Of a stretch of DNA of 64,000 bases, positions 6,538 to 44,629 are shown in pieces. The stretch lies in the NCBI GenBank assembly GCA_026683435.1, contig GCA_026683435.1_4866.1, one strand, 5' to 3'. The translations under genes were made by a program, and so were the position numbers. The notes below the pieces were generated by a model. The model ran no database searches, was not told the DNA's origin, and was given only the letters and a program-made list of their open reading frames with translations. Position 1 is the first letter of the stretch. Each line of letters opens with the position of its first letter. This DNA comes from a phage.

Positions 6538-6549
6538 TGTCGTTACCTC

Positions 6550-7968: not shown

Positions 7969-7981
7969 GGTATTTACTCCA

Positions 7982-8905: not shown

Positions 8906-8914
8906 GACTGCCCC

Positions 8915-9913: not shown

Positions 9914-9924
9914 GGATGATACCT

Positions 9925-11337: not shown

Positions 11338-11352
11338 AGGGACTCCGCATCG

Positions 11353-11382
11353 CCAAAAGAGGGGGGGCTCCGAAGAGCCCCT
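11353..11382 (-). terminator. hairpin terminator after gene 11387..12214
   Basis: ggggctc-cgaa-gagcccc, G7 run in 5' arm; T-rich on minus strand. Confidence 0.55.
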
Positions 11383-11386
11383 ACAC

Positions 11387-12214
11387 TTAGCTGTTATAGT
11401 GGTAGTACGCCACGCCTTTCACGCCTTCCTCATCGATACCCGTTTGGACAACCACGCGGTCGTACGATTTGTTAGCGAACTGAGCGGTGGATGTCGGCAC
11501 ATCCTGAACGGTGTTACTGTTCAGTGGCCCCGCGTAGTTCGGAATACCCAGGTCATCCAACACCTTACGCAAACCAGCCCACTGCGGTAGGCCAGAAGCA
11601 TCTACTGTCAGTAGGTTTTTATACGCGGTAAAGTCAATACCGTACGTCAACAAATCAATACACTTCTTACCGAGAGACGGTGAAATAGGCTCTTGAATCG
11701 CATTCAAGACATCCGATTTCACCGAAGTGTCTAGTACCGGTAAACCACGGTTATAACGCAACGTCGCAGAACCGATATAAGCCGGAGATGTCGATAGCGC
11801 TACGATGTTCTGTGTATTGGTGTAATTTGGGGTATTGGGACCCGCCAGTGGGAGGTTATAGATATCGATTGCAGAGAAGTTTACTCCGTAAGTATCCAAG
11901 AGCACCGAAAAGGCTGAGTGGAGGTTGGGAGCGTCAAACGTGACGAACTGCGCCTGGACAGAAGGACCCCACGGCAATAACCGCGCTAAGTTCACACGGT
12001 CGTAGTAAACGGTGATTGCGTCTCGAAATCCAGAACCCTGAATACCGCGCAAGCGTGCCGACGTATTGCGGTTGTTGGAAGCTGCATTAACGGGAACCTG
12101 TGTCACTTTCTCCACGTAGCAGTTTGCCGGCGACGCTTTAATAGGTAGGTTTGGGTTATCCCGGTTAATGAGGTCAAAGACCAACTCGTTTGACGGCTTA
12201 GCATAGTTGATCAT
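11387..12214 (-). CDS. N-module paralog, 275 aa, C-terminal YYHYNS (C-type end motif)
   Basis: Track start 12217 is TTG; ATG at 12214, 4 nt after upstream stop. MINYAKPSNELVFDLINRDNP...NNRNTSARLRGIQGSGFRDAITVYYDRVNLARLL. Confidence 0.6.
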   Translation of the reverse strand: MINYAKPSNELVFDLINRDNPNLPIKASPANCYVEKVTQVPVNAASNNRNTSARLRGIQGSGFRDAITVYYDRVNLARLLPWGPSVQAQFVTFDAPNLHSAFSVLLDTYGVNFSAIDIYNLPLAGPNTPNYTNTQNIVALSTSPAYIGSATLRYNRGLPVLDTSVKSDVLNAIQEPISPSLGKKCIDLLTYGIDFTAYKNLLTVDASGLPQWAGLRKVLDDLGIPNYAGPLNSNTVQDVPTSTAQFANKSYDRVVVQTGIDEEGVKGVAYYHYNS

Positions 12215-12217
12215 CAA

Positions 12218-13105
12218 TTATACCTCGCTTGGATCGTCCAGATCGTTGAACTGGAGATACAACGTTCCGACGATGGTGGTACAGGTAACAGGCAGTTTCA
12301 ACACCAGCGCATACTTGTACTTCGCGTTTGTCGGCATTGCAACAGGGTCATTCAGACCAACGCTGATAACCTCCGCGCCCGCCAAACCGTAGGAAGCGGA
12401 AGTGGTCGCTACCCATGCAGTACCCGTGATATCTTTCAGCAGGTTAACCATATCCGTCAACGGCTGTCCAGACAGAATACCCGGCTTGTATGCCAGCAGA
12501 GCATCTCGGTACTTAGTGAAGTTGTACGGGTAGGAATAGACCTCTGCAATGACCGCAGTAACATTTTCGGAACCCATCTGACCGTTCGGGTATTTCAGAC
12601 CGGTCAGGACGTTAGTAGTGACCGCAGAGACTAACGACTCATCGCCTTTCACGACTTTAAATGTCGCCTGTCCAACCCAACCGATAGACTCTGGATGTGC
12701 AACAACACGCACAGTACCTTCGGTCTTATCACCGTTCCATTCGATATCTGCGTCCTGCAGGTCAGCTTCTTCCAGAACAAAACCGTAACGTTGGTTCAGT
12801 CCAGGAATGGCCGCATACAAGGTTTCGTTGGATGGGCCGATCGCCAACGTGTCACCAATCAACACTAACAAGTCTTCGACTTTCATGCGGTTGTAGAAGA
12901 CATTTTTCTTACCCGACCAGGTAGAGCCCGTTACCCCATCTGCCGTAATTTTAATTTGCGTGTTACGGTTAGTCAGCGTTTCCTTTTCCGTACCACGGAT
13001 GTCCTTTGGCGTGGACCAGATGATGTCAGTCATCTTAACAGCAAGCGAGTTCTGTGCGTTCACTGCTGCCAACAGGACGTCTTTAGAAGGTTGATAAATA
13101 GCCAT
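12218..13105 (-). CDS. N-module paralog C-type, 295 aa
   Basis: MAIYQPSKD...TNRNTQIKITADGVTGSTWSGKKNVFYNRMKVEDLL...RYGFVLEEADL; C-terminal LYLQFNDLDDPSEV. Confidence 0.6.
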   Translation of the reverse strand: MAIYQPSKDVLLAAVNAQNSLAVKMTDIIWSTPKDIRGTEKETLTNRNTQIKITADGVTGSTWSGKKNVFYNRMKVEDLLVLIGDTLAIGPSNETLYAAIPGLNQRYGFVLEEADLQDADIEWNGDKTEGTVRVVAHPESIGWVGQATFKVVKGDESLVSAVTTNVLTGLKYPNGQMGSENVTAVIAEVYSYPYNFTKYRDALLAYKPGILSGQPLTDMVNLLKDITGTAWVATTSASYGLAGAEVISVGLNDPVAMPTNAKYKYALVLKLPVTCTTIVGTLYLQFNDLDDPSEV

Positions 13106-13115
13106 TCGCTAATTC

Positions 13116-13955
13116 CTAGTTGTTGTAGTGCAACATACACTCGCCGATTACTTTCGGGTCGTTCTGAATGCCGGTAATCAGCAATACGTTATCGTACGCT
13201 TTATTGGCGGTCGCCAACTCACTCGTTTTGTAGCGGGTAATTGTGCAGTTCGTCGGATCAAACGACGGTACCCCACGTGCGACCAATGTGGCCATCAGAT
13301 TGGACGTGTAACCCAAATCAAAGTTACTTCCTACGTCCATTCGCCCGTTCTTAAACGAGGCCATAACCTGCACTTCATCGGTAAAGTCTTCCCCGTACGT
13401 CAAGAAGCCCATGTATTTCTTACCAGTGCTTGCTGCTGCAGGGTGGTTCAAAGCCAACAAGATGTCGTTTACCACGAGGTCTTCGAGGCTATTCTTACCC
13501 CGGATAGACATAAAGGTGATGCTGCCAGTGTATTGGATACAGCTAGCGTTAATACGCATCGTGTTGTTTACGTTCAGATAAACGTATTGTTCTGGGATAT
13601 CATCTGCAACCAGGTTTAATCCATAACGACCGTTCAGGTTCTGCGCAAACGCAGTACGTTTCGACTCCACGTTCAACCAACCGTAGGCATTCGGTGCAGT
13701 TACCTGAGGTGTCATGTTCTTAAATAAGTCGTTCAGCGACAAGCGCTTATAACGGAACGTTTGAGGACCGATATAACCACGACCTTGACGACCACGAATG
13801 ATAATCTCGGTGTTGGCACCGCTTGCTGTCGGTGTGATTGCTTTCGGCGTACCGATGATAGCATTGTCTAAACCCATCGGTAGAACAGCATCCGGGTTTT
13901 CGGCATTAATCGCATCGTACAGATATTGTCGCTGAGACAGACTATATAAAGCCAT
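13116..13955 (-). CDS. N-module paralog C-type, 279 aa
   Basis: Track start 13973 is TTG; ATG at 13955 with GAGGAGG 4 nt upstream (MALYSLSQRQ...). Module ...GRQGRGYIGPQTFRYKRLSLNDLF...RYGLNLVADDI; C-terminal MLHYNN. Confidence 0.65.
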   Translation of the reverse strand: MALYSLSQRQYLYDAINAENPDAVLPMGLDNAIIGTPKAITPTASGANTEIIIRGRQGRGYIGPQTFRYKRLSLNDLFKNMTPQVTAPNAYGWLNVESKRTAFAQNLNGRYGLNLVADDIPEQYVYLNVNNTMRINASCIQYTGSITFMSIRGKNSLEDLVVNDILLALNHPAAASTGKKYMGFLTYGEDFTDEVQVMASFKNGRMDVGSNFDLGYTSNLMATLVARGVPSFDPTNCTITRYKTSELATANKAYDNVLLITGIQNDPKVIGECMLHYNN

Positions 13956-13970
13956 AATAGCCTCCTCGGC

Positions 13971-14012
13971 CAAAAAAGAAAGGAGTAGCCAGGAGGAGGA
14001 TTTCCTCCTCCC
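13971..14012 (-). terminator. hairpin terminator after gene 14025..14936
   Basis: ggaggagg-attt-cctcctcc; minus-strand T-run (plus caaaaaagaaagg). Confidence 0.6.
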
Positions 14013-14024
14013 AGCGAGGCCTAA

Positions 14025-14936
14025 TTAGGCATTAAAGTGCAGGTACATGATACCCTGGAAGTTGGTGCACAGAGTGTCATCCAGCTGCAGCAGCAGAACC
14101 TGGTTGTAAGCAGTGTTTGCACCTTCAACCGGTTTCTTAGGTTCGTCGCCTGAAGCAGTGCCATCGTCAGTAGTAGAACCAACGTACAACACGTTAGCGC
14201 CTTTCAGGTTATAATCCGCAGGCTTATCAGATGCAACCCACAGTTCCGGCACAACTTTATTCAGCTCAACCGGGAATGCAGAGTCGCCAGCGATAACACC
14301 TTTCGCCTGTACTTTCAGGAATGCTGCGATTGCTGTGCAGTCTACACCGTAAGAGTAGATGTAACCCTGACCCTTCGCAGCGCTTGGACCATCTGGGTAA
14401 ACCAGGCCGTCGAGCTTGGTTTGTGTTACCACCAGACTCAGACGTTCACCAACCTGAGGCTTAGCACCGATTTTAACCGGGATGCTGCCCAGATAAGCGT
14501 AGCAGTCTTCTTTGAAAGTAATGACGTGGTCAACCGGTGCTGGGTCCGGATCGTTCGGGTTAGTCAGCGGCGGGTTGGTATTTTCCGGAATAGCCGCCGG
14601 AACGATATCGTCTTCGGTCAGCTTCAATCCGTATTGGGTGTTCAGGGTCGTCAGCAGGTCGGTGGTGGTTTTCGGCAGTTTAACGTCGAGGTATGCGGTT
14701 ACATTACGGAACAGCGCACTGCCTTCCAGGCGATTATAAGTCACGTCCTGAGTACCGATGTACCCGGAGTTCTTTTTCGCAGTCAGGGTCATGCTGGTAT
14801 TGCGATCGGCACCTTCATCGCTAATAGGGGTCGGTGTGCCGAGCGTTATTTTAGAAAGTTCCAGTTCTGCGTCTGGGTTTTTCTCATTAATAAAATCCAG
14901 AACCAGCTTATCGGACGTTTTGTTTAAAGGTTTCAT
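14025..14936 (-). CDS. N-module paralog C-type, 303 aa
   Basis: MKPLNKTSDKLVLDFINEKNP...ADRNTSMTLTAKKNSGYIGTQDVTYNRLEGSALF...QYGLKLTEDDIV; C-terminal MYLHFNA. Confidence 0.6.
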   Translation of the reverse strand: MKPLNKTSDKLVLDFINEKNPDAELELSKITLGTPTPISDEGADRNTSMTLTAKKNSGYIGTQDVTYNRLEGSALFRNVTAYLDVKLPKTTTDLLTTLNTQYGLKLTEDDIVPAAIPENTNPPLTNPNDPDPAPVDHVITFKEDCYAYLGSIPVKIGAKPQVGERLSLVVTQTKLDGLVYPDGPSAAKGQGYIYSYGVDCTAIAAFLKVQAKGVIAGDSAFPVELNKVVPELWVASDKPADYNLKGANVLYVGSTTDDGTASGDEPKKPVEGANTAYNQVLLLQLDDTLCTNFQGIMYLHFNA

Positions 14937-14957
14937 TCTTACTTCCTTTACTCAGGA

Positions 14958-15803
14958 TTAATCAGGGTCGTTGTAATGCAAATACAAACGCCCGCCAAAA
15001 TTCAGACAGTACAACGACAGCTCCACAATCAGCACGTTGTCGACTGCTGGGTTGGTTGGTAATTCCGCTTTGTTACGCCCGTTATAGACGACGACGGCTT
15101 CACGAAGGTTAAAGTCGATAGGGTTGCGGTACGTTGTCCAGTTATCACCGGTGACCGTTTTGAGAATCTGTGCCAGACGTTCTGTGGTTATCGCAGCACC
15201 TAGTCGTTGAAATTCCTCCGCGAAATTATCAAAGCGCCAGGGATACGAATAAACTGCACCTTGACCGACCTTGATGTTAAAATACGGATACTCGTAAGGC
15301 ATCACTGTTAACGGTTCGAAGTTTGCAGGAAGCAACGCATCGCCTGGTAACAGCTGTACCTGTTGTTGCCCTATCCAACCTAAAGAAGTGGGCGTGGCAA
15401 TCAGATCCACACGCCATGTCTTCCTGTCGATTTCGGTATTCACCACATCTGCAGGTTTAAGGCTGAGACCGTAATACTGGTTAATTAACCCGACCACGTC
15501 ATGCATCTGGTAAACAGCATCGAGACGTGCAGGAACACGTAGAGGTTGAATCCCGTCCGGATCGGTAAACATGTCTGCGAAGTCAACACGATCGTAGTAC
15601 ACGGTAGTGGCACCGATAGCATTAGCCGTGGCCAATGCCTGAATGCGCACCATCGCGTTGTGACCGTTAGCTTTTGCCAGGTCTTCGTCAGACGTCGGAA
15701 TCGCAGGGACACCAAAAACAACATCTTCGACTTTTAAATCGAGATTGTTTTCGACGTTAACTTCCGCGATAATAATCTTTTCAGCTGTGGCTAAAAGTGG
15801 CAT
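14958..15803 (-). CDS. N-module paralog C-type, 281 aa
   Basis: ...TTVYYDRVDFADMF...YYGLSLKPADVV; C-terminal LYLHYNDPD. Confidence 0.6.
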   Translation of the reverse strand: MPLLATAEKIIIAEVNVENNLDLKVEDVVFGVPAIPTSDEDLAKANGHNAMVRIQALATANAIGATTVYYDRVDFADMFTDPDGIQPLRVPARLDAVYQMHDVVGLINQYYGLSLKPADVVNTEIDRKTWRVDLIATPTSLGWIGQQQVQLLPGDALLPANFEPLTVMPYEYPYFNIKVGQGAVYSYPWRFDNFAEEFQRLGAAITTERLAQILKTVTGDNWTTYRNPIDFNLREAVVVYNGRNKAELPTNPAVDNVLIVELSLYCLNFGGRLYLHYNDPD

Positions 15804-15813
15804 GTCAAAATCC

Positions 15814-16656
15814 TTATATCGGGAGATAATGAAGGATGAGATTACCGGCGTAGTTGCTGTCCGCAGCTAGCTTGATAATCGCCACACGCTGATAATCGGG
15901 GTTGTAACTATCGTTCGGTGTGACTGAAGTTATCCCCATAAATCGTGCACCTTGGAGTGCAATTTGTTCAGGTTGCGCATTCGCCCCCGTCACATATGCA
16001 AACTTTAATGGCACCACTTCATTCAACAACTCAACATCCGCTGCAGTGATTGCACGGTTGTAAACCCAATCGGTGGTGAACTGTTTTTGCAGTTCAGTCC
16101 AATCGTAACCATACGCCACATACTCAGCCTGCGGTTTACTAGCAACCACGAACGGCGCGATAATTGCGCTGAGGTCAACATCCGTCACCACATCCGCCAA
16201 GTTCGGGAAGAACTTCGCAAAGCGTAAACGGAAACCACCTTGCCAGGCCAAGCAACCGGGCTTAATAGTCACATCGATTAACCAGCTTTCTCCCAAATCT
16301 TTTACTGACTGGTCAACGATATCGTCGGCAACTAAAGACAAGCCGTATTTCGCATTCAGAAACGGCAACAACTCAGAGAGTTTATTTACCGGGTCGGCAA
16401 CGACTACCGGTATTACGTTCCTGAACAGAATTTCCATTTCGATACGGTCGTATTCGAGCGTAACGTTGCCTTTGTAGCCCTTGCCGTTCAACCCGTATAA
16501 GAGCACACGCGTATTCCGGTCAGCGCCAGGCGTTTGGACAGACTCAGGGAAGCCAGTTGCAACCTGCTCCCATGTGAGTGGATTGGCCGTTAATCCGTTC
16601 TGTCGGTTAATAGCATCTAACAACATCTCTTTCGAGGGCTTATCGTAAATAGACAC
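15814..16656 (-). CDS. N-module paralog C-type, 280 aa
   Basis: MSIYDKPSKEMLLDAINRQNG...ADRNTRVLLYGLNGKGYKGNVTLEYDRIEMEILF...KYGLSLVADDIV; C-terminal LILHYLPI. Confidence 0.6.
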   Translation of the reverse strand: MSIYDKPSKEMLLDAINRQNGLTANPLTWEQVATGFPESVQTPGADRNTRVLLYGLNGKGYKGNVTLEYDRIEMEILFRNVIPVVVADPVNKLSELLPFLNAKYGLSLVADDIVDQSVKDLGESWLIDVTIKPGCLAWQGGFRLRFAKFFPNLADVVTDVDLSAIIAPFVVASKPQAEYVAYGYDWTELQKQFTTDWVYNRAITAADVELLNEVVPLKFAYVTGANAQPEQIALQGARFMGITSVTPNDSYNPDYQRVAIIKLAADSNYAGNLILHYLPI

Positions 16657-16666
16657 CTATACCCTC

Positions 16667-17464
16667 CTAGTTGTTAAAGTGTAGGTTGAGGCTGCCCTGG
16701 AAGTTCGTACATTTATCGGTCAGTTGCACTGACACGACTTTCGCGAACGCCGTATTTGCTCCCGGCAAGTCTGCAGGTACGCCGTCGAATACGACAGTGG
16801 CACCACGCAGGTTATACGGGGATGGGGTATCTTCAGCTACCCAAATCTCAGGAACACATTTGTTGAGTTCGATTGCCAACGCCGTGTCATCTACCTCGAT
16901 ACCGACCGCTAAGAGGCTCAGGAAACGAGAGATGTGGCTACAATCGATGTCACGCGAATAGATATACGCCTGACCCAACTGGATGTCCTGGTGATCCGGG
17001 TACAGAAGACCGCTCAACTCTGTATTGGTTACTACTTCTGCCAGAGGTGTAGCAGGTTTCAGCTCGATGACCGCTTGACTTCGCCACTCGTGGGAAGTTT
17101 CAACAGCAACGACTGTGTGCGTCTGTCCATCAATGGGGTTATCTTCGATATCCTCAGGTAAGATAGACAGATTAAAACGCTCGTTAATCGCCGCGAGTAA
17201 GTCGTGCGTGGTTTGCACGTCCTCGTCTCCAAAGGCAACATCGCCTGTAAGGTAGTCCTCTAATGGGCGACGATGGTAGTCCACAATCACTTGCGTACCT
17301 TCATCACCGCGCATCTTCGAGGTAAGGACTACCTCCGAATCACGACCGTCTACTGACACAACCTCCGGCAGTCCGATATCAACATCGTCAAAGGTAAGCG
17401 GTGGGCTTATCTTATTCTCTTCGTTGATGAGTTTTAGCAGATTCTGTTTTGAAGTAAAAGACAT
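16667..17464 (-). CDS. N-module paralog C-type (first gene of array), 265 aa
   Basis: MSFTSKQNLLKLINEENK...; C-terminal SLNLHFNN; divergent N-module. Confidence 0.55.
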   Translation of the reverse strand: MSFTSKQNLLKLINEENKISPPLTFDDVDIGLPEVVSVDGRDSEVVLTSKMRGDEGTQVIVDYHRRPLEDYLTGDVAFGDEDVQTTHDLLAAINERFNLSILPEDIEDNPIDGQTHTVVAVETSHEWRSQAVIELKPATPLAEVVTNTELSGLLYPDHQDIQLGQAYIYSRDIDCSHISRFLSLLAVGIEVDDTALAIELNKCVPEIWVAEDTPSPYNLRGATVVFDGVPADLPGANTAFAKVVSVQLTDKCTNFQGSLNLHFNN

Positions 17465-19839: not shown

Positions 19840-20241
19840 TTACTCATCTTTTACCTCGAAACCGTGACTACGGAAATACTCGATGGCCGCAGAACGTTTA
19901 CCTACACAGGAGAGTTTTTCATAGAGCAACTCAAGGAGTGTTTTTGGTTCCCAACGTTGCTCTATGAAATAGATTAGGGCACCCAGGTTCCGTCCTAACA
20001 TCTTGTCACGCAGATCCGCATCTCGTCGGGCATCCCGTAGCTCATCTTCGAGTTTCCGGTTCTTAGACTGTTCCTCAGAAAGTAGTCGTGTAAGCTTACG
20101 GCGTTCTTCGAAAGATTCATCAAGATTTCTTTTCCACGCTTCTTTCGAAATTTCCAACTCAGTCTTTGATAGGCTGAGTTCCAATTCCAGTATTTCTAAT
20201 TGGCGACGCAACTGTTTTTTCTCCTGAAACAGGCCGAACAT
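19840..20241 (-). CDS. coiled-coil protein (133 aa)
   Basis: Track start 20256 is TTG; ATG at 20241 with AAGGAG SD; charged heptad-like sequence (LEILELELSLSKTELEISKEAWKRNLDESFEERRK). Confidence 0.6.
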   Translation of the reverse strand: MFGLFQEKKQLRRQLEILELELSLSKTELEISKEAWKRNLDESFEERRKLTRLLSEEQSKNRKLEDELRDARRDADLRDKMLGRNLGALIYFIEQRWEPKTLLELLYEKLSCVGKRSAAIEYFRSHGFEVKDE

Positions 20242-20306
20242 GTTTTCTCCTTGCAATAGCTCTATCGATTCTGTTACGAATTTCTGCTAACGTTAACGGT
20301 TCCCAC

Positions 20307-20627
20307 TTAAAATCCATTGCGACCTCCATGTGCGATGTATAACGCACATTTCGCATTGAGTGCTTCGATATTAGCGATAAGTATCATCACCCCGCCGAGT
20401 GTTCGTGGTACGCGAACTGCTTCGTACTCGCGACTTTGTGTACGGACACAATATTCATCGCCCAGGAACGCGATTTCGTAATACTCAGCACGTAACGGTA
20501 CAAATGACTGTAGCAACATATCTGCGGTTTGATAGTCGTCAGTCAGTTTCCCGCCCTCGAGTAAATATTTCTGAATCTCGTGAATAGTCAGTCCCCGTAA
20601 TGAAATAGACACCGGCTTCTCCTTCAT
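20307..20627 (-). CDS. hypothetical protein (106 aa)
   Basis: ORF track; start uncertain (overlaps upstream ORF). Confidence 0.5.
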   Translation of the reverse strand: MKEKPVSISLRGLTIHEIQKYLLEGGKLTDDYQTADMLLQSFVPLRAEYYEIAFLGDEYCVRTQSREYEAVRVPRTLGGVMILIANIEALNAKCALYIAHGGRNGF

Positions 20628-20970
20628 GGTCGATTAATAACAGTTCAGGTGGTACGTCGTAGTCGATGGGTGCGGACTCCTCCATCACGCTATACAATCG
20701 CTGATAGAACTCTCTGGAGGTTTCCAGGTGCCCTCTTGACACGTGTCTGACATGCGGTGTATTAGGATGATAAAACTCGCCGTAGGTTATCGCTAACTCG
20801 ACAAACCATAGACATAGTTCTCTTGGCCCGTATCGGTTATAAAACTTTATCACCCCAACATCAAACATCTTGTTGTAATGCGGTAAATCACGATAACGAA
20901 GTTTTAGTGTACCTACACCGATGCGTTGAAGCTCGATAGAGATAGCTACGTCTATGGTTAACATTATCAA
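20539..20970 (-). CDS. hypothetical protein (143 aa)
   Basis: ORF track; colinear with neighbours. Confidence 0.55.
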   Translation of the reverse strand: MIMLTIDVAISIELQRIGVGTLKLRYRDLPHYNKMFDVGVIKFYNRYGPRELCLWFVELAITYGEFYHPNTPHVRHVSRGHLETSREFYQRLYSVMEESAPIDYDVPPELLLIDHEGEAGVYFITGTDYSRDSEIFTRGRETD

Positions 20971-20987
20971 TTACCCTTATCTACCGA

Positions 20988-23036: not shown

Positions 23037-25196
23037 TTACTGATATATTTTGATTTGTGGGTAACTATAGCTATAGCTATCGCTATCAACATCCTGACCG
23101 ACAAACAAAATGCCTGTGTTAGAAAACGCCGCGCTGCAATACAATGTTAGCCCGGCGGGGTTAGAAATCGTATTACCGTAGTAGGCGCTGTAGCGCATGT
23201 ACTTACCGTCATTCTTCACAAACAGGCTGCCTAACGATCCAACCATTCCGAAGATCAAACAAGCACCATCGGGAGAAACACAGACATTGCCGTTCGGATA
23301 TCGAGTGGATGTTACACTATAATCAATTTCCGTGTAATCCAACTCACGTGTCGCCACCCAACCATCGGCGCGTTTTTCGAAGATGTTGTATTTGTGGGTT
23401 TCAAGGACGGATACCAGTATGACTGAAAAGTTCGAAGATGCTGCCACCTTCAACGTCGAGGCTTCTGCTAACCCTGGGATGTCTAGCTTAGCGGTTTCAA
23501 CATAGAGTCCTTCTGAACCTTTAGTTACGATATGAACAGATTTTCCATTGTGCTCTGAAAAAGCAACGCTGGTGCCATCGGCGGTCATCGCAATACTGTC
23601 GTACGAACCACACAGAGCACCAGAATCGTCGAAGTCAAACGTGAGCGTTTCGTAATTTGAAAACCCATCACTTTTTTGGTAAACAGCTATTTCGCGCGTA
23701 CCATTCCCAACGAACAGTGTCTCTCCGTCCGGGGTGAGTTTGACCAACTTACCGTTTACACCGGTGGCCGGGAGATTGGTAATTGCTGTTGGCGTCACTT
23801 TGCCCCACGGCATGTCGGCACTGTTGTCGTAAACCAGCACTGCGCCCTTCGTTGTTTCCCCAGTTATCGCGGAAGGAATCCCGACGACGAACAAATCGCC
23901 TGACTTGTTTATCGATACCGGACAACGCCCATCGGTTTCCGCATTTTCACCAGTATCAAAAGTTAGATCCATCAGAATGCTGGCATCGTGTCTATAGCCT
24001 GGGAAATCTTTTCTATATATAGAAATTGTAGTTGAACGCTTTGCAAGTGGAGTGGTAATCAGTACATTTGCATCGCTACTACAATCCAATTCTGCACCCA
24101 ACGAATAATTATTTTCCGAAGACACGTTCAACGACTGGAATTCATTCGATGGGTATACGTTTCGGCTTATCTTTATCCGATAAGGATCGGACCACTGTCC
24201 GACGGTGTCCTCACCACGATATCTGACGCGTAGCCAATAACTACTACCGTATTGAAGCACGTTATCCGGCAGAGTTATCGTTGTAAGGTTTCGCATATCG
24301 AACAATGAAGAGAATGGTAGGTTGCTACTAGGACTAAAATCTAACGTATCGCCATAGTTATAATAGAGTTTCCAATCTGTAGCAATATGCGTTTCCGTGC
24401 CTGAAGTTTCAAACGTCGATGTTTCTATCGTTAAACCTGACGGTCCGTTCACATCGGTTGGGGTTGGCGACACTATCGTCGGTTTTTGGATTGTGGTCTC
24501 TATTACCGAAAACATGGTTACTGACCAGTCACTATTAACCGTATCTGAGTGAAATTTAGCACGGGCGTAATACGTCTTGTTTCCTACCAGTGTGCCGGGT
24601 GGTAAAGTTAGAAATTTTTTAGCATCCTGAGATTCGAGCAATTGGTAAACCGTAGTGGAAAAATCTTCATTTTCAGACACTTCCCAACTCGTCGCTCTAT
24701 GAGGTGTTGTTTGAAACGGCCTTGCAGTGAAGCCATTGAGGATAAAATCCAGATCACTAGCTGAACTAGAACCGTAGTACGGGGAAATCCATGTAGGCGC
24801 GTCCACTACATTAGAGACCACCTCAATTTCATAGGTTTTGGTGATGCCGTTAGCAGAAACGGTCAGCGTAATAATTTGTCCTAACTGCCGAGGATCTTCG
24901 ATAAACAACGTATAGTTTAAACCTCCATAATGCCTGATTATTGCTTCAGGGCACGTTACCTGATAAACCGACGGTTCTTCATTACCGGCAATGTAAAAAA
25001 ACGTTTCCCTGCCTAGAATGCATTTTTTTTCATCTCCGTCGGAAAAGATTACAGTGAATGATGACTCTGCAGAAGCATCTGACAACGGTATCTTGTATTC
25101 GATTCCATCCTTACTAAATAAAACAACCCCACCCGTTTTATCCCCAGTAAATTCAGGCAGTTCGTGTAAACGTTTCTTTTTGACTACAGTTGCCAT
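23037..25196 (-). CDS. large structural-type protein (719 aa) with beta-sandwich-like and beta-propeller-like repeats; putative fibre/adhesin
   Basis: Repeated segments ending ...W(S/E)...Y (HRATSWEVSENEDFSTTVY, SSYWLRVRYRG...WSDPYRI); C-terminal repeats TADGTSVAF / SPDGACLIF; start overlaps the upstream N-module gene. Confidence 0.55.
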   Translation of the reverse strand: MATVVKKKRLHELPEFTGDKTGGVVLFSKDGIEYKIPLSDASAESSFTVIFSDGDEKKCILGRETFFYIAGNEEPSVYQVTCPEAIIRHYGGLNYTLFIEDPRQLGQIITLTVSANGITKTYEIEVVSNVVDAPTWISPYYGSSSASDLDFILNGFTARPFQTTPHRATSWEVSENEDFSTTVYQLLESQDAKKFLTLPPGTLVGNKTYYARAKFHSDTVNSDWSVTMFSVIETTIQKPTIVSPTPTDVNGPSGLTIETSTFETSGTETHIATDWKLYYNYGDTLDFSPSSNLPFSSLFDMRNLTTITLPDNVLQYGSSYWLRVRYRGEDTVGQWSDPYRIKISRNVYPSNEFQSLNVSSENNYSLGAELDCSSDANVLITTPLAKRSTTISIYRKDFPGYRHDASILMDLTFDTGENAETDGRCPVSINKSGDLFVVGIPSAITGETTKGAVLVYDNSADMPWGKVTPTAITNLPATGVNGKLVKLTPDGETLFVGNGTREIAVYQKSDGFSNYETLTFDFDDSGALCGSYDSIAMTADGTSVAFSEHNGKSVHIVTKGSEGLYVETAKLDIPGLAEASTLKVAASSNFSVILVSVLETHKYNIFEKRADGWVATRELDYTEIDYSVTSTRYPNGNVCVSPDGACLIFGMVGSLGSLFVKNDGKYMRYSAYYGNTISNPAGLTLYCSAAFSNTGILFVGQDVDSDSYSYSYPQIKIYQ

Positions 25197-25747
25197 TATA
25201 CATCGTCTCCGTAGGTTAACACTGCATCATCACCGATGCATAAAACAGTTTCTTCATCCAGACTTGCCACAGCTTCTTTTTCATTAAACGCCGTGAATGT
25301 AAAGGTAGCCGTCCAAGCCGGTGAATCGTCACTCATCGCTGCAATCAATGGCTCGTTTGTTGGTGTAATAACCCCTGTCGAGATGTCTTCACGTGACAAG
25401 TTTAAACCGCATAACTGGTTTACAACTGTCGCTAAATCAGCATAGGTGTCGCCGGGAGCTACAGTAACCAGTATCGGTCCTTGCGGGTCGATAATCTTAT
25501 TAGCGACTAGACGGTCGTAATAGACGGTAACCTTCTTGCCGTTAGGTTTACGTGCTTTCGCAATGTACGCTTGCGAGGTACGGGCACTTTCAACACCTAA
25601 GTCGATTGGCCCTACTCCGCTTATCACAATCTCGTCAGGCGATAATGACAAGCCGTTATCGTGATTAATCAACGCCACGACAAGCGCTTTCGACGAGAGT
25701 GTTAGGTCTGGCTGATAGCGGTCTGCCATTAACGCCTCCAGAAACAA
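25196..25747 (-). CDS. stand-alone N-module protein (183 aa)
   Basis: ...KVTVYYDRLVANKII...QLCGLNLSREDIS matches both N-module blocks; followed directly (overlapping start/stop) by the 719-aa gene. Confidence 0.6.
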   Translation of the reverse strand: MFLEALMADRYQPDLTLSSKALVVALINHDNGLSLSPDEIVISGVGPIDLGVESARTSQAYIAKARKPNGKKVTVYYDRLVANKIIDPQGPILVTVAPGDTYADLATVVNQLCGLNLSREDISTGVITPTNEPLIAAMSDDSPAWTATFTFTAFNEKEAVASLDEETVLCIGDDAVLTYGDDV

Positions 25748-26588: not shown

Positions 26589-27540
26589 TTTTCGCTATCT
26601 CTTTTTCTTTCTCCTGAAGCGCTTTAAAATGTGGCGCATACGCGCACCACTCTTCCGCGGTAAACGATGTGATACATAACCGGTTAGTATCTTCACTTAC
26701 CGTAAAGGTCGTGTGGTTTCTTTCCGGGTCCTTAAAGTTAGCAAAAGCCGGTACGCCCAAACCCATAGCAGAAATAGCACTACCGAGAGCAGAACACCAT
26801 ACCCGTCTGTAAGCATCGTTGATTTTAATCTCCCATCCCACAGACGGTGTAATACCAAGACTACGATAATTCTGCGACTTTGCCGACGGATGGGCATAAA
26901 CGATGAGCACGTTATTCTCACGGTCTATCGCGAATTCGTAGTTGTTGTTGTTACTGACCTGTACCAACCTACGAATATCTTCCGGCAACTCCTGCCACAT
27001 TTCCAGTTTCTCTTTATCCCACGCAGGTGTTAGAAGCGGTGGAACGCGACCGGCATGATCTTGGAAATACATCAATTCGCTATAGAGGTTCTTTAAGCGA
27101 GCGTACTCGTCTAATGTCCAATCTCCCAGCTCTAGACTATTCTCCAACGCATCTAGCTTATTCCAACCAACAACTGCATAGGCGTGGTGCTGTTTGCGCG
27201 TAATACCACACATCAGTTTAGCGAGACCGTTAACAACATTGCCCTGCTGAACCAGAGGCGACCAGCCGTTAGCATATCCAGCGGTAACGACAGGCTGGAA
27301 GTTCTCTTCCCCGAGCACCGCCCATGTAACATGTTCGGTTTGTGCATGGTGTCTATCCATCAACCGTTCAACAATGGCCACGCTACAAAGAATTTCCATG
27401 AAGTTCGCGTTACCTCCATTCCACATGGAGAAATATGCAGGACGGACATGTCGCGCTTCATTGGCCGGTGCTTTGCACAACAGCTGATACATTATCCAGG
27501 TGGAATCCAACCCTGCTGAAAACGAAACAAGCTTTGTCAT
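26533..27540 (-). CDS. PP-loop superfamily ATP pyrophosphatase-like protein
   Basis: Track start 27609 is TTG; ATG at 27540 forms an ATGA overlap with the upstream stop. N-terminus MTKLVSFSAGLDSTW resembles the SGGxDS PP-loop. Confidence 0.4.
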   Translation of the reverse strand: MTKLVSFSAGLDSTWIMYQLLCKAPANEARHVRPAYFSMWNGGNANFMEILCSVAIVERLMDRHHAQTEHVTWAVLGEENFQPVVTAGYANGWSPLVQQGNVVNGLAKLMCGITRKQHHAYAVVGWNKLDALENSLELGDWTLDEYARLKNLYSELMYFQDHAGRVPPLLTPAWDKEKLEMWQELPEDIRRLVQVSNNNNYEFAIDRENNVLIVYAHPSAKSQNYRSLGITPSVGWEIKINDAYRRVWCSALGSAISAMGLGVPAFANFKDPERNHTTFTVSEDTNRLCITSFTAEEWCAYAPHFKALQEKEKEIAKNAKASKAVDAPTGEVADS

Positions 27541-28022
27541 TGTTTCACCGTATGTAGAAATTGATAACGTGGGGTTTCTTCTGCCACAACATCGAAAGAT
27601 GGGATGCAAACAATCTTCCCATATCCATCGAGTTCTATACGTGGAGAAATCGTGATGGTGCCTGCACGCATCACTTCAATCGCTAACGCTTTGAGTGGGC
27701 CGTGTGGTGTGAATTCACCGCGGAGTTGAAAGTAACCATCGACAACGCCATAGCAGACGTTCGATACATAACCGCAAACGCGTACGAGTTCAATACAACG
27801 TATCCGATCAATGGCGGCCTTTACTTCCCCGAACGATTGACACGGTTTAATCACAGGCGCGTCGAATTCACAGAAAACGTGTCCGCGACGTAATGCTAAC
27901 GATATCGTTTCGTCGGGACGGGCCGAGTCTTTAAATTCGTCGCACGGTATAGACAGTATCAGTCCACTCGCGGATGCCACGGTTTGTGCGGGTATTTCCT
28001 TAACCTCGGTTTGTAGTTTCAT
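27537..28022 (-). CDS. Cys-rich hypothetical protein (161 aa)
   Basis: ORF track; translationally coupled to the PP-loop gene. Confidence 0.55.
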   Translation of the reverse strand: MKLQTEVKEIPAQTVASASGLILSIPCDEFKDSARPDETISLALRRGHVFCEFDAPVIKPCQSFGEVKAAIDRIRCIELVRVCGYVSNVCYGVVDGYFQLRGEFTPHGPLKALAIEVMRAGTITISPRIELDGYGKIVCIPSFDVVAEETPRYQFLHTVKQ

Positions 28023-28112
28023 TTATTCACTCGATAATTAATGGGGTTAAAATCAAATCCATGTAACCTAGGGTTAATAGCGCCACTATCTCAATCGGCG
28101 TGAGGTTTTCCA

Positions 28113-28322
28113 TTATTTTTCCTCTTTCAATATCTCAGCAACCGCTTTGCGACACGCGTTCACAGCGTCAGGATAAGTGCTATTGTTCGGGTCTACTCGA
28201 TCAATACACATTCTGAACGTGCTGGTTGCGGTCTCTCGACGTTCTGCAGTGCGGGTACTGGTACTGACGGCGATATAAATACAGAACAACACAGCAGCTG
28301 CGATCGGCCAACGTAGATTCAT
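28113..28322 (-). CDS. small membrane protein (69 aa, one N-terminal TM helix)
   Basis: WPIAAAVLFCIYIAVS hydrophobic segment followed by a charged tail. Confidence 0.45.
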   Translation of the reverse strand: MNLRWPIAAAVLFCIYIAVSTSTRTAERRETATSTFRMCIDRVDPNNSTYPDAVNACRKAVAEILKEEK

Positions 28323-29020
28323 CAGTAATCCCCTGTTGCCCCTATCGCAGTCGCTACTTTACCGACGACCTCGTCAACCGGAAGTACCACCTCGTCTTTC
28401 TTGCTCACAATCTCTGGTACTTCTTTGACATGTTCAACGGTCACGTCAAACTTCCGAGTATAACCAACAAGTAACTTTGCCATATCTGCACGACTAACGA
28501 ACTGTTGTTCTTCCGACAGATGTAACGACGTATCAAGTAGTCCAGAATGCATGAAGTTTTCAATGAGTTGGTCTTCTTCCTCTTTGAAGTCGTACCGCTC
28601 GTTCGGGGCGGCCACAAATGCATAACCGAAATACTTCCCCTCTTCCTGTTCAGGGCGTAACGATTTAACTAACTCCTCAGCGTGTTCACAGAAGTCCGCC
28701 AAAGTATAATCGTCAAGTGTGGCAACTGCGGTTTCTGTTACAATTTCACCGGTGTCGAGTTCAGTGAGGTGCATCACCCAAAGATGCCATGGTCGCGGTT
28801 GGTCGAACAGCCCACCGACTAACATATCTGTGGCGATAGCACGAATGCGAGGACTTGCCGTAAAGTGAAAACCACGGCCCGCGTACGGCCCGAGGCGACG
28901 AATCGAACTGCCGATAAACGTGATACGATTCAGAGCGTTTTCAGCGACGGTGTGTGCCGTACGTTCTGTGGCAACTTTCGGGTTATACTTTTTGTTACGG
29001 GGTTTCTTTTGCTTAGCCAT
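28322..29020 (-). CDS. hypothetical protein with basic N-terminus (232 aa)
   Basis: Track ORF extends to 29149; ATG at 29020 (MAKQKKPRNKKYNPK...) avoids overlap with the upstream gene. Confidence 0.55.
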   Translation of the reverse strand: MAKQKKPRNKKYNPKVATERTAHTVAENALNRITFIGSSIRRLGPYAGRGFHFTASPRIRAIATDMLVGGLFDQPRPWHLWVMHLTELDTGEIVTETAVATLDDYTLADFCEHAEELVKSLRPEQEEGKYFGYAFVAAPNERYDFKEEEDQLIENFMHSGLLDTSLHLSEEQQFVSRADMAKLLVGYTRKFDVTVEHVKEVPEIVSKKDEVVLPVDEVVGKVATAIGATGDY

Positions 29021-29063
29021 GTTCTGATTCTCTTTGTGGGTTACATTAAATGTGGCGGTGATG

Positions 29064-29621
29064 TTAAAAATAGTCTTTCTTATTTTCGCTACGCGGGAAC
29101 TCAGCGAAGGGGACGGTTCCGTTTTCATCGAGCTTTGCAACCAGCTCACTGAATTTCATGAACGGTACAAAACGGTTATTGCCGGGGAACACCGAACAGA
29201 TTTTCTCAATGCGCTCAATCGTCCAGTTCCCGTTTTCAGGATCAAGGTCAGGGTTTAATGCGAGGTGCTCAATAAAGGTCGACAGCAGCGACGATTCTCT
29301 ATCTTCGGGAATCACCACTACGCGATGATGACTGTGGGTTGAAACCAAACGATAGTTCGGCCCCGCTAACTTGACGTCTAAGATTTCACCCCCTGCTCGA
29401 ATCAACGTACCGGCGTAAGTGATTTCTTCATGACGCAGGTTATCCTTACCCGTGTTCAGTACGTCCGTTAACATCCGTACGTTTTCCGTTGGGAACCACC
29501 AACCGTGTATGGTGAAGTGTTCTTCTGGGTTACTGGGCATGGGTAGGTTTAAGCCAACGTGGTTCGTGTTGACGTAAATCTGGTCGTCGATAATAACGCC
29601 TGAGATATAAACGTTATTCAT
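29064..29621 (-). CDS. hypothetical protein (185 aa)
   Basis: ORF track; ATGA-type overlap with upstream gene. Confidence 0.6.
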   Translation of the reverse strand: MNNVYISGVIIDDQIYVNTNHVGLNLPMPSNPEEHFTIHGWWFPTENVRMLTDVLNTGKDNLRHEEITYAGTLIRAGGEILDVKLAGPNYRLVSTHSHHRVVVIPEDRESSLLSTFIEHLALNPDLDPENGNWTIERIEKICSVFPGNNRFVPFMKFSELVAKLDENGTVPFAEFPRSENKKDYF

Positions 29622-30142
29622 TTACGCAAATCCTCTCTGTAAACCACGTCGCATTTACGACTGGTCATGGGGTCAATGTACGATACCAACTGAACGATGT
29701 TCTTCGGCTCCATCCCGCAAGCCCAACCACAGATTGCTAAATCCCCTCCGCTACCAAACCCAATAGGTGCACGCAAGTCCAGCTCATCAACCATCAGTAT
29801 TTTGTTGGGTTCTGGCATGTTGGTGTTCGGGTCTTCCAACGACATCATGGAGTTATGCAATTTAAAGGATTTGGTGCGGGTCATTATCAGCAACGTATCG
29901 AATGCAATGAACTGGTTGATAAATGCTTCCGCTGCTTCGCGTGCTTTACGCTTGCCAAATACGAAAGCGTAGACCGCCTTGTCGAGTTTTACACGTTGTT
30001 CGGTAGTTGGGTGGCTGGAACCAAAGAAATACGCTATACGGCCTTTTAAGACCTGTATTTTCGTATCATCAACAACCATTCCATTCAGCAACACTGCGCG
30101 GTCACCAACGAGGTAGTCTTGAGTGAATAATACCGTGGTCAC
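29618..30142 (-). CDS. HslV/proteasome-beta-like Ntn-hydrolase (tentative)
   Basis: GTG start with AAGGAGG SD; N-terminus M-TTVLFTQDYLVGDRAV (compare HslV TTIVSVRRNGHVVIAGDG) and PIGFGSGGDLAI (compare HslV IAIGSGG). Confidence 0.4.
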   Translation of the reverse strand: MTTVLFTQDYLVGDRAVLLNGMVVDDTKIQVLKGRIAYFFGSSHPTTEQRVKLDKAVYAFVFGKRKAREAAEAFINQFIAFDTLLIMTRTKSFKLHNSMMSLEDPNTNMPEPNKILMVDELDLRAPIGFGSGGDLAICGWACGMEPKNIVQLVSYIDPMTSRKCDVVYREDLRK

Positions 30143-30152
30143 GCGACCTCCT

Positions 30153-30194
30153 TAAAAAAGAAAAAAGACGTCCTACTCCCGAAGGAGTAGGACA
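30153..30194 (-). terminator. hairpin terminator after gene 30200..30544
   Basis: gtcctactcc-cgaa-ggagtaggac preceded (plus) by aaaaaagaaaaaag. Confidence 0.7.
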
Positions 30195-30199
30195 CCGAA

Positions 30200-30544
30200 T
30201 TAGAAGTGCTTACGGAAGATAGACTCGTTGCAGGTCTCCCCACGCGTCTTACCACGAGACACGGTGGTTTTGTTTGCAGCAGTTTTACCATCACCCACAG
30301 CGGTCTTCGCCAGCGGCAGACGTTCGCTTGCACCACGGAATGCGTAGTAGCGAATGTTTTCTGGGGCAGCGACATCGCCTTCGAACTGGAAGGTGATACC
30401 TTTACGCAGTGACTTGTAGGTGTAGCCTTTCAAGTCCAGCGTCTGCGGCAGTGCATTTTCATCGGCACCATGTTGGTAGTGGATAACCGTACCTACACGT
30501 TTGATGACGATATACATCTGCGCTGCTTTTGGTGCTTTGGCCAT
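30200..30544 (-). CDS. small, apparently highly expressed protein (114 aa), N-terminus MAKAPK
   Basis: ATG at 30544 with AAGGAG SD; strongly biased codon choice (ctg, cgt, ggt, aaa); own promoter-like element and terminator. Confidence 0.65.
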   Translation of the reverse strand: MAKAPKAAQMYIVIKRVGTVIHYQHGADENALPQTLDLKGYTYKSLRKGITFQFEGDVAAPENIRYYAFRGASERLPLAKTAVGDGKTAANKTTVSRGKTRGETCNESIFRKHF

Positions 30545-30592
30545 TCTCGATACTCCTTATAGATTAAAATGTGAGGGAGAAAACAATCTTCT

Positions 30593-30618
30593 CCCCTAGA
30601 TAACATCTATCTGAAAAG
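30593..30618 (-). promoter_or_regulatory. promoter/operator-like element, copy 3
   Basis: Plus cccctagataacatctatctgaaaag; leader stem gggagaa...ttctccc. Confidence 0.5.
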
Positions 30619-30625
30619 TAATGCG

Positions 30626-30952
30626 TTAGAGGCGGATTTGCAGCTGGATAGGATCGCTGTTTTCTCTGTGGGTATCAGGCCAGCAGAAAATACGATGATG
30701 TACGCGACTTATCTCAACCACTAACCCGATAGCGGGTACAAACAGGAACACGTTCAGCGGCATGGTGAAGTCAATCTTACTTTCAAGATTGGTGAAGTGG
30801 ACTTCTTTGTTATCCACCCCAATCACCTGTGCGTACACCTGCCGTGCTTCCGGCGGACACCCTAACGACTTCTGAAACGCAGACTGCATCCGAATGAGTA
30901 GCTCACTCGGCGACAGTTCATCGCGGACATCAATGAGGGATGGGCTCGACAT
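30626..30952 (-). CDS. hypothetical protein (108 aa)
   Basis: ORF track. Confidence 0.55.
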   Translation of the reverse strand: MSSPSLIDVRDELSPSELLIRMQSAFQKSLGCPPEARQVYAQVIGVDNKEVHFTNLESKIDFTMPLNVFLFVPAIGLVVEISRVHHRIFCWPDTHRENSDPIQLQIRL

Positions 30953-31244
30953 GGTGGTTGGTATCCAGTACGAAGGAGTTCTCGCCGGTCTTTTTCGCCA
31001 GCGCCCACATCCACTTGTCGGTGGACTTGTCGTGCCACGATGCTAACCACACGCCATCGACAATGCCTGCGGTGTCAACTTCCGGGTGGAACAGCATGTA
31101 TTCGTTTTCTTCCGCATCGAGGACAACGAACTGCCCTTCCTCCATACGGTCGAAGTTAGCGACACCAACGGTAATCGGTTCCGCATCGACAGAAAGGGTC
31201 ACTTCACGTTTTGGCAGGTCACGATGAATAGCACTTAACCACAT
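30930..31244 (-). CDS. hypothetical protein (104 aa)
   Basis: ORF track. Confidence 0.55.
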   Translation of the reverse strand: MWLSAIHRDLPKREVTLSVDAEPITVGVANFDRMEEGQFVVLDAEENEYMLFHPEVDTAGIVDGVWLASWHDKSTDKWMWALAKKTGENSFVLDTNHHVEPIPH

Positions 31245-31340
31245 TCTCTTAATTCCTCTTTACGTGGGTTGTTTCACATAAGTTAGTGGACTGATGTAAA
31301 TAAAAAGGGACCCCCTCACCCGTGGGCAAGGAGGCAAACC

Positions 31341-44239: not shown

Positions 44240-44629
44240 TTAATAATCGTACAAAGGATACCGTGCGGAAATTTCTTTACCTACCCAAAAAGTTAACTGG
44301 TGGGTATTAACGCTGCGGTGTGTTCGTACTGACGGGACAATTGTCGCTTTAACTTTCGGCGAACACGTACCGGCATCTATTGGCTGGTACGTCTTGCGCT
44401 TTGTGTTAACGAGATAAAAGCCACCGCCCGGACACAGTTCAGAACGCCCGTAGTTGACCACGGCAAACTCACCCTTCTCCACTGTCACGACTGGTTCATC
44501 TTTGTCGCTAAATTTTACAGGTGCGTCAGTTTCCCACATCGGTTTATACTGCGGGAAGTCCTGAATGGTAAAGGCGTTTACTGGCGCAGTAACGCAGACT
44601 ATAAACACAGCTAATACAGCACGCATCAT
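44240..44629 (-). CDS. secreted/periplasmic protein with cleavable signal peptide (129 aa)
   Basis: MMRAVLAVFIVCVTAPVNA|FT: basic n-region, hydrophobic core, A-x-A-like cleavage site. Confidence 0.6.
   Translation of the reverse strand: MMRAVLAVFIVCVTAPVNAFTIQDFPQYKPMWETDAPVKFSDKDEPVVTVEKGEFAVVNYGRSELCPGGGFYLVNTKRKTYQPIDAGTCSPKVKATIVPSVRTHRSVNTHQLTFWVGKEISARYPLYDY

Follow-up and report, generated by a model that had tools for sequence, protein, structure and literature searches.

The 64,000-nucleotide stretch of phage DNA analysed here (contig GCA_026683435.1_4866.1; hereafter the window) contains at positions 28113..28322 a small open reading frame (ORF), gp116, which an initial annotation had flagged as one of several dispersed, lysis-associated membrane protein genes. 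It was found that the window is 96-98% identical to the Seoulvirus genomes SPN3US, SPLA3 and SEGD1 (Salmonella jumbo phages) and is the reverse complement of ~67.5-135.8 kb of SPN3US, with nearly every gene on the - strand. SPN3US is a Seoulvirus, a chimallivirus and a relative of phage phiKZ, and its gene names are used below. The best holin candidate appears to be not the flagged gp116 but gp86, a predicted two-helix protein that is the positional counterpart and may be a distant relative of the phiKZ holin gp142. The genes needed for this argument are the following.

1..393, - strand: start of the gp156 orthologue, encoding the N-terminal 131 amino acids (aa) of a 205-aa endolysin; the gene runs off the left window edge.
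472..2649, - strand: gp155, a DUF7941 fibre-like protein (Pfam).
2664..3983, - strand: gp154, a DUF7941 fibre-like protein (Pfam).
28113..28322, - strand: gp116, the flagged ORF, 69 aa with an N-terminal hydrophobic helix.
46342..46914, - strand: gp86, 190 aa with two predicted transmembrane (TM) helices.
46917..47567, - strand: gp85, a RuvC-like resolvase (PHROG RuvC, 1e-37).
47567..48454, - strand: gp84, a DUF7208 virion protein (Pfam).
58145..59149, - strand: gp76, 334 aa with a C-terminal hydrophobic tail.

The three ORFs that had been named as candidates (gp116, gp86 and gp76) do contain the hydrophobic segments attributed to them, as evaluated by Kyte-Doolittle and Wimley-White hydropathy. 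Relative to SPN3US, the numbers of synonymous and non-synonymous codon differences were 24 and 6 for gp116, 12 and 2 for gp86, and 14 and 2 for gp76, and by this comparison all three are real genes under purifying selection. The list of candidates was incomplete, as it missed the ORFs at 44240..44629 and 30626..30952. Furthermore, about 5 ORFs with a hydrophobic segment among ~95 window genes is ordinary for this genome, and the label "lysis-associated" was an assumption and not an observation. The three candidates had also been presented as equals, whereas positive evidence, namely synteny and a profile-profile match to the phiKZ holin, was found for gp86 only.

The placement of a GH108 endolysin at the far left of the window, after a fibre array, was borne out by Pfam searches of the SPN3US orthologue and by the DUF7941 genes upstream. 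The 131 endolysin residues within the window, which are the N-terminal part of the protein, are identical to those of the 205-aa SPLA3 orthologue, and full-length SPN3US gp156 matches Glyco_hydro_108 (2e-18) and PG_binding_3 (3.8e-19) and carries the PHROG label endolysin. A hydropathy scan of gp156 found no hydrophobic segment and no secretion signal, so that it has the catalytic domain, the PG_binding_3 domain and the signal-less start of a GH108 endolysin. The homologues of gp156 are endolysins of many small phages, some of them annotated beside holins. Because gp156 has no export signal, it is predicted to be a cytoplasmic endolysin, unable to reach its substrate unless the membrane is breached.

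Inside the window, no membrane protein adjoins the endolysin. The two genes immediately upstream encode a protein with DUF7941 (3e-22) and a GP38 adhesin domain (472..2649) and a second DUF7941 protein (2664..3983; 1.5e-26), all by Pfam, and both products lie below the Kyte-Doolittle threshold. Wimley-White analysis gave several sub-zero windows in both, the strongest being -6.5 in the 2664..3983 product, and we take these to be buried hydrophobic stretches of soluble proteins and not membrane helices. The DNA left of the window was viewed in relatives that are 98% identical to window positions 1..3000. In these (SPLA3, 7495..7790 of the locus examined; SPN3US, 136040..136323), the endolysin gene is followed by two micro-ORFs: an unannotated 33-aa ORF encoding a cationic amphipathic peptide (MKQNWFAALMKAIWRALVFAARRKRNDPPSNSA), the ATG of which overlaps the endolysin stop codon, and a 30-aa ORF with a single helix. 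All four nucleotide differences between SPLA3 and SPN3US in the 33-aa ORF are synonymous in its frame. Next come genes for a DUF1353 protein (gp157), an M15-like peptidase (gp158; PHROG label "endolysin", 2.7e-26) and a lipoprotein (gp159). The endolysin-DUF1353-lipoprotein neighbourhood is kept in both of the Erwinia phage relatives examined; Wellingtonvirus pEa_SNUABM_11 has a 36-aa single-helix ORF in the slot of the micro-ORFs, and Machinavirus pEa_SNUABM_6 has no such micro-ORF between endolysin and DUF1353. Thus, the statement that no holin-like gene lies beside the endolysin holds inside the window but needs amending for the 33-aa and 30-aa ORFs just to its left in relatives. A canonical holin immediately left of the window was the finding named in advance as contradicting the initial annotation; in the relatives only the 30-33-aa micro-ORFs occupy that place, and since no gene there is a canonical holin, the annotation survives on this point.

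The gp86 protein consists of a helical, soluble N-terminal domain of ~100 aa, TM helices at residues ~104-125 and ~137-156, and a basic C-terminal tail. Both helices score strongly (Kyte-Doolittle 2.49 and 2.14; Wimley-White -9.4 and -12.6), and an invariant PIKTLAY motif follows the second helix in family alignments. An AlphaFold2 (AF2) model is all-helical and confident (predicted local distance difference test score, pLDDT, of 85.7). The family is small, with 19 representatives among 1.84 billion proteins, and well conserved. When the gp86 family was compared by hhalign with a profile of seven members of the phiKZ gp142 family, residues 14-59 of gp86 aligned with residues 4-53 of gp142, N-terminus to N-terminus, with a probability of 60.6%, an E value of 8.3e-5 and a score of 34.7. 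In 150 column shuffles the score had a mean of 12.0, a standard deviation of 2.1 and a maximum of 20.4; reversed and unrelated profiles scored 11-14, and the match remained stable at 29-35 as members were added. Among the phiKZ-like phages no relative of gp86 closer than gp142 was found, and in SPN3US no relative of gp142 closer than gp86. With at least one TM helix, gp86 has the membrane segment expected of a gp142-type holin.

The position of gp86 points the same way. In phiKZ, complementation has assigned a lysis cassette of i-spanin 141, o-spanin 141.1, holin 142, regulator 143 and endolysin 144 (Manohar et al. 2026, PMC12894885), in which gp142 is a class IIIB holin whose N-terminal domain is large and cytoplasmic and which has one transmembrane domain (TMD) (PMC12894885). 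The genes gp139 and gp140 immediately precede this cassette. Using tblastn, phiKZ gp139 matched SPN3US gp84 (8e-32) and phiKZ gp140 matched gp85 (5e-13), and the Pfam domain DUF7208 is present in both gp84 and phiKZ gp139. The very next gene after gp84-gp85 is gp86, which thus occupies the position expected of a gp142-type holin. The order of DUF7208, RuvC and a gp86 homologue is kept in Erwinia phages phiEaH2 and Kwan and in Cronobacter phage CR5. In Vibrio phage pVa-21 the slot holds a 171-aa two-helix protein that matches the gp86 family with an hhalign probability of 80.6%, and in Erwinia phage Ea35-70 it holds an unrelated two-helix protein. In Ralstonia phage FLC1-1B the slot contains a TMD/coiled-coil protein, a lipoprotein with a lipobox (LTGC) and a small protein with one helix; this order can be read as i-spanin, o-spanin and putative holin.

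Several results weigh against assigning gp86 as a phiKZ-type holin. The similarity to gp142 is in the twilight zone and covers only ~46 N-terminal columns; the membrane parts of the two proteins are unaligned, gp86 has two TMDs and gp142 one, and it has been shown that hole formation in phiKZ does not require the aligned, regulatory part. Whereas gp142 has one TMD and then a short C-terminus in the periplasm, two TMDs are kept across the gp86 family, and the C-terminus of gp86 is therefore predicted to be cytoplasmic. An hmmsearch with a hidden Markov model (HMM) of the gp142 family against all SPN3US and window ORFs found nothing, gp86 was not ranked first when the gp142 profile was compared by hhalign with 292 single SPN3US ORFs, and Foldseek, run with the gp86 AF2 model against BFVD, retrieved no proteins beyond the gp86 family itself. 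Likewise, tblastn of phiKZ gp141, 141.1, 142 and 143 against SPN3US gave nothing significant, a homologue search with phiKZ gp142 in a set of 5.8 billion proteins returned gp142 itself only, and gp86 has no holin match in Pfam or PHROG. It is also unusually conserved for a holin, at 82% identity in SPAsTU, where gp200 (see below) is at 42%. The slot after DUF7208-RuvC is not kept in Goslar and PCH45. The following gene, gp87, was ruled out as a regulator counterpart, as it is unrelated to phiKZ gp143; with no spanin genes in the window and the endolysin 46 kb away, none of the adjacent lysis genes that accompany gp142 is found beside gp86. The TM calls themselves come from hydropathy scans alone (a Kyte-Doolittle threshold, and sub-zero Wimley-White windows in kcal/mol). 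Moreover, there are a second holin candidate, gp200, near an exported SLT enzyme outside the window, and the micro-ORFs right after the endolysin. Setting the gp142 match and the synteny against the points that weaken them, we regard the case for and against gp86 being a holin, presumably a two-helix variant of the phiKZ type, as evenly balanced.

A further parallel with phiKZ involves the DUF7941 proteins, one of which stands alone.

25196..25747, - strand: gp122, a 183-aa stand-alone DUF7941 protein (Pfam, 6.4e-18).

Pfam confirmed DUF7941 in four window proteins (472..2649, 2664..3983, 16667..17464 and 25196..25747); two other members of the fibre array (472..17464), at ~4649..5548 and ~7982..8905, were scanned and gave no Pfam match. 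The phiKZ protein gp143 (7694..8224 of the phiKZ locus), the gene for which lies just upstream of the phiKZ endolysin gene, has a sub-threshold DUF7941 match (E 0.0017), and an HMM of the gp143 family weakly matches gp122 (E 8.6e-4) and also gp237. By hhalign, the gp143 family matched gp122 with a probability of 48% (P 1.8e-4, 121 columns) and the gp122 paralogue gp237, outside the window, with 73%. By these matches gp122 is a weak relative of the phiKZ regulator gp143, and it might be speculated that it is a counterpart of this regulator. The idea that gp122-gp124 as a block equals phiKZ gp143-gp146 was dropped, as phiKZ gp145/146 had no match in SPN3US. The DUF7941-endolysin parallel fits, although it does not prove, the view that in SPN3US the fibre array and ~70 other genes have come between the parts of a phiKZ-like cassette.

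No o-spanin lipoprotein ORF was found in the window by two lipobox scans in six frames, which returned only antisense ORFs inside large genes; therefore no lipoprotein ORF lies beside or inside an i-spanin gene in the window, as would be the case for a two-component spanin. A genome-wide scan of SPN3US identified gp204 (TMD plus coiled coil, with a Pro-rich tail) followed directly by gp205 (159 aa, lipobox LTGC), at 20017..20976 of the SPN3US locus and beside gp203. In phiKZ, gp156.1/gp156 (10185..10897 of the phiKZ locus) is the syntenic pair of a TMD/coiled-coil protein and a lipoprotein, beside gp157, a homologue of the virion gene gp203. This phiKZ pair looks like a second spanin-type pair; it is not mentioned in the phiKZ lysis paper (PMC12894885), and because the proven phiKZ spanins are gp141/141.1, pairs of the gp156.1/gp156 type may do something else. 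Also in SPN3US, gp198 matches Pfam SLT (1.4e-6) and the phiKZ endolysin gp144 (tblastn, 4e-10), being a homologue of the catalytic part of that enzyme, and has a signal-like N-terminal start, MFRTILFLLVAVTTFNSNA. Two genes after gp198 is gp200, which encodes 86 aa with two hydrophobic helices and a weak DUF4231 match; it was found only in Seoulvirus and its nearest relatives and diverges fast. All of these genes (gp198, gp200 and gp204/gp205) lie at least 40 kb beyond the window. As a side observation, four very small hydrophobic ORFs (63, 67-82, 43 and 35 aa) are present in the gp187-gp190 region of SPN3US (11400..12092 of the locus).

The main rival holin is gp200, which would serve the SLT enzyme gp198 outside the window as holin or pinholin, leaving gp86 with another membrane role such as regulation or anchoring; this corresponds to the holin outside the window that the initial annotation had suggested. 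This alternative has in its favour the two hydrophobic helices of gp200, the N-terminal signal or SAR-like (signal-anchor-release-like) sequence of gp198 and its match to phiKZ gp144, the spanin-like gp204/gp205 only ~4 kb further on, and a fast divergence typical of holins (42% identity in STsAS and 40% in pEa_SNUABM_29). However, gp199 separates gp200 from gp198, gp200 has no PHROG family and no homology to any proven holin, and its restriction to Seoulvirus and nearest relatives is difficult to reconcile with the need of all relatives to solve lysis; if gp200 were only a pinholin, the crossing of the membrane by the signal-less GH108 enzyme would also be unexplained. We therefore consider the gp200 alternative unlikely, even as the leading rival.

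A local lysis module directly downstream of the endolysin, comprising the 33-aa and 30-aa peptides, gp157, gp158 and gp159, seems less likely still. The micro-ORFs are visible in both SPLA3 and SPN3US, and the purely synonymous differences of the 33-aa ORF, the 36-aa ORF in the same slot of pEa_SNUABM_11, the order of endolysin, DUF1353 and lipoprotein kept in two Erwinia phage relatives, and the PHROG label of gp158 would agree with such a module. On the other hand, pEa_SNUABM_6 lacks a micro-ORF in this place, the 30-aa ORF is DNA-identical in the two genomes compared, which means that selection cannot be judged, and all of these genes are outside the window and seen in relatives only. It also counts against the module that we know of no holins as small as 30-36 aa or smaller. 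The lowest probability belongs to the proposal that gp116 is itself a lysis protein, either a small class-III-like holin or an antiholin like T4 RI in which a signal-anchor-release N-terminus would precede a disulfide-bonded domain in the periplasm. Its one TM-competent N-terminal helix and its C-terminal helical hairpin with two invariant Cys would suit this role, and its size and layout are, as we presume, like those of T4 RI. Yet there is no lysis gene nearby, the neighbours being a protease-like module; gp116 has no family match, it is absent from Erwinia, Cronobacter and Vibrio phage relatives, and a natural variant with a 14-aa deletion exists, all of which makes a lysis function of gp116 highly improbable.

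Returning to gp86, we propose the following model, in which SPN3US-like chimalliviruses would have their lysis genes dispersed and not clustered. The muramidase gp156 would be a cytoplasmic endolysin that needs a membrane lesion in order to reach the cell wall. The lesion would be provided by gp86, a holin of the phiKZ gp142 type that may have kept the N-terminal cytoplasmic regulatory domain while spanning the membrane twice, and that would remain in the ancestral slot right after the DUF7208-RuvC pair; the intervening ~70 genes, the DUF7941 fibre array among them, account for the ~46 kb that separate gp86 from the endolysin. Disruption of the outer membrane would be the task of the spanin-like pair gp204/gp205 outside the window. 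In a more far-reaching version, SPN3US-type chimalliviruses would carry a pulled-apart phiKZ-type cassette: the holin would survive as the two-helix gp86, with its regulatory domain, in the ancestral slot after RuvC; the endolysin would have been replaced by the GH108 enzyme, 46 kb distant and after the DUF7941 fibre array; regulation of the holin would fall to a small DUF7941 protein, gp122 or gp237; and the spanin role would have moved to the second conserved TMD/lipoprotein pair, gp204/gp205, which is syntenic with phiKZ gp156.1/gp156. That gp86, the GH108 enzyme, a DUF7941 regulator and gp204/gp205 jointly form such a cassette is doubtful, but if it is so, the whole family would have conserved a link between the regulatory domain of the holin and a fibre-like protein.

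The flagged gene gp116 belongs to a protease-like module, the members of which are as follows.

27537..28022, - strand: gp117, a diverged prohead protease paralogue (PHROG head maturation protease, 2.2e-47).
28027..28113, - strand: a 28-codon ORF, the N-terminal remnant of a gene for an HslU-like AAA+ ATPase.
29618..30142: an HslV-like peptidase, a member of the protease-like module.

The order of the module is HslV-like peptidase, gp115, gp116, the 28-codon remnant and gp117, and gp117 of SPN3US has been described as a prohead protease paralogue (PMC5694885). The start of gp116 overlaps the upstream stop codon (TGATG) and is preceded by an AGGGG Shine-Dalgarno sequence. The protein has a single N-terminal hydrophobic stretch at residues ~5-23 (Kyte-Doolittle 1.69; Wimley-White -7.2 kcal/mol), rich in Ala, Ser and Thr, and then a C-terminal helical hairpin of 45 aa that contains two of the three invariant Cys residues (C14, C39 and C57). 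In one natural variant, 14 residues are deleted where the hydrophobic helix ends and in the charged linker. A single-sequence AF2 model showed three helices with low confidence (pLDDT 67.5). Searches with gp116 matched Seoulvirus genomes and near-identical metagenomic copies and nothing else; the Erwinia, Cronobacter and Vibrio phage relatives that have the rest of this region in common do not carry it. It has no Pfam match, and its sole PHROG is phrog_28359, a family of unknown function, so that neither a known holin or antiholin family nor an adjacent endolysin or spanin gene was found for it. Most likely, gp116 is a small genus-specific envelope protein, predicted to be signal-anchored or secreted, and in all likelihood it has no part in lysis, to which nothing connects it.

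The unannotated 28-codon ORF (MENLTPIEIVALLTLGYMDLILTPLIIE) fills the gap between gp116 and gp117, and its start overlaps the gp116 stop codon (TAATG). All 4 of its codons that differ from SPN3US are synonymous, and its first 10 aa match the start (MENLTPVEIV) of the HslU-like, 582-aa gp130 of Erwinia phage Huxley. By these matches, the ORF is the surviving N-terminal part of a gene for an HslU-like AAA+ ATPase, which Huxley has in intact form. The Huxley protease paralogue is flanked by two-helix ORFs of 61 and 58 aa (6870..7055 and 7659..7835 of the locus) that are unrelated to gp116, and thus small membrane proteins recur in the protease-like module, with no tie to lysis. It was also observed that ~29020..31200 is a mosaic segment, with all Seoulvirus megablast matches ending at ~29021. 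By more sensitive blastn, the nearest sequences to this segment (~80%) are those of Erwinia Machinavirus phages, Huxley and Machina for example, and the segment contains the HslV-like peptidase gene and strong terminator-like hairpins at 30196..30167 and 31335..31310.

The third named candidate, gp76, has a globular N-terminal part, a 41%-charged stretch nearly free of Pro and Gly that fits a coiled coil, and a hydrophobic tail that ends the protein and scores more weakly than the gp86 helices (Kyte-Doolittle 1.75; Wimley-White -2.3). Its gene directly follows that for the major capsid protein and is conserved in Seoulvirus and in Erwinia, Cronobacter and Vibrio jumbo phages, every copy being annotated as hypothetical and its PHROGs being of unknown function. 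It is most likely a membrane anchor of the capsid neighbourhood, predicted to be tail-anchored, with no evidence for lysis; as a speculation, it might fasten a capsid-related component to the inner membrane. One of the two ORFs that had been missed is the following.

44240..44629, - strand: gp90, 129 aa with a signal-peptide-like N-terminus.

The gp90 N-terminus (…APVNA|FT; Kyte-Doolittle 2.24, Wimley-White -5.7) suggests a cleavable signal, and gp90 is probably secreted to the periplasm. It has 13 non-synonymous and 16 synonymous codon differences from SPN3US and therefore evolves fast. Its paralogues gp181-183, in tandem in SPN3US (166126..167492) outside the window, share a Cys-Pro-Gly-Gly-type motif. 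We rejected gp90 as an i-spanin on the basis of its cleavable-signal look and the lack of a coiled coil and of a nearby lipoprotein ORF. The other missed ORF, 30626..30952, is doubtful as a membrane protein because its hydrophobic stretch contains Pro and lies inside a conserved, soluble-looking family.

In the literature searched, phiKZ is the only nucleus-forming jumbo phage for which the lysis pathway has been elucidated (2026; PMC12894885), and lysis of Seoulvirus is not described. Papers on SPN3US (PMC5105663, PMC5694885, PMC10052503 and PMC7411985) do not mention gp76, gp116, gp156 or SPN3US gp86, the "gp86" of PMC5694885 being that of phiKZ, and holins and spanins are unmentioned in a 2026 jumbo phage review. 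Because SPN3US is the genetic model of the group in enterobacteria, gp86 and the rivals named above amount to a concrete and testable gene assignment, which bears on whether the phiKZ holin regulatory domain is a family-wide feature. Taken together, the results partly support the initial annotation: what it observed was largely right but incomplete, and its reading of a dispersed arrangement was right in spirit. It had suggested a non-canonical cassette or a holin outside the window; there is indeed no canonical holin-endolysin cassette, and part of the machinery appears to be outside, but the emphasis on gp116 was wrong because the flagged ORF is the least supported of the candidates. The assignment of gp86 would be a modest and partly new annotation, not a new kind of system, and the 69-aa ORF is an ordinary orphan.

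The comparison with known systems can be made for each of the proteins concerned. The T4 RI antiholin and the T4 class III holin T are small proteins in which a single hydrophobic helix at the N-terminus is followed by a soluble C-terminal domain. This layout is shared by gp116, although gp116 is genus-restricted and has neither a sequence or family match nor neighbouring lysis genes. Two-component spanins of the lambda Rz/Rz1 type resemble gp204/gp205 in being adjacent and in the order i- then o-spanin, but gp205 is large (159 aa), the Pro-rich tail of gp204 is unusual for i-spanins, and the pair is outside the window. Class II holins, such as the phage 21 pinholin S21, have two TMDs with both termini in the cytoplasm (N-in/C-in); gp86 is similar in its two TM helices, short loop and basic C-terminal tail, and differs in its extra conserved N-terminal domain of ~100 aa and its far greater conservation, with no sequence relation found. 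The phiKZ cassette differs in having one TM helix in the holin and not two, with the membrane parts unaligned, and in its spanin genes after RuvC and its gp143, to which the gene after gp86 is unrelated; here, the endolysin is a GH108 and not an SLT enzyme and is ~46 kb away, and SPN3US has its SLT homologue gp198 and its spanin-like pair at other genomic locations. Nevertheless, in both phages the same DUF7208 and RuvC-like gene pair precedes the membrane protein, the endolysin gene directly follows a DUF7941-type gene, and gp86 and gp142 each have a large soluble helical N-terminal domain, with profile similarity between the two, and after it the predicted membrane part and a short charged tail.

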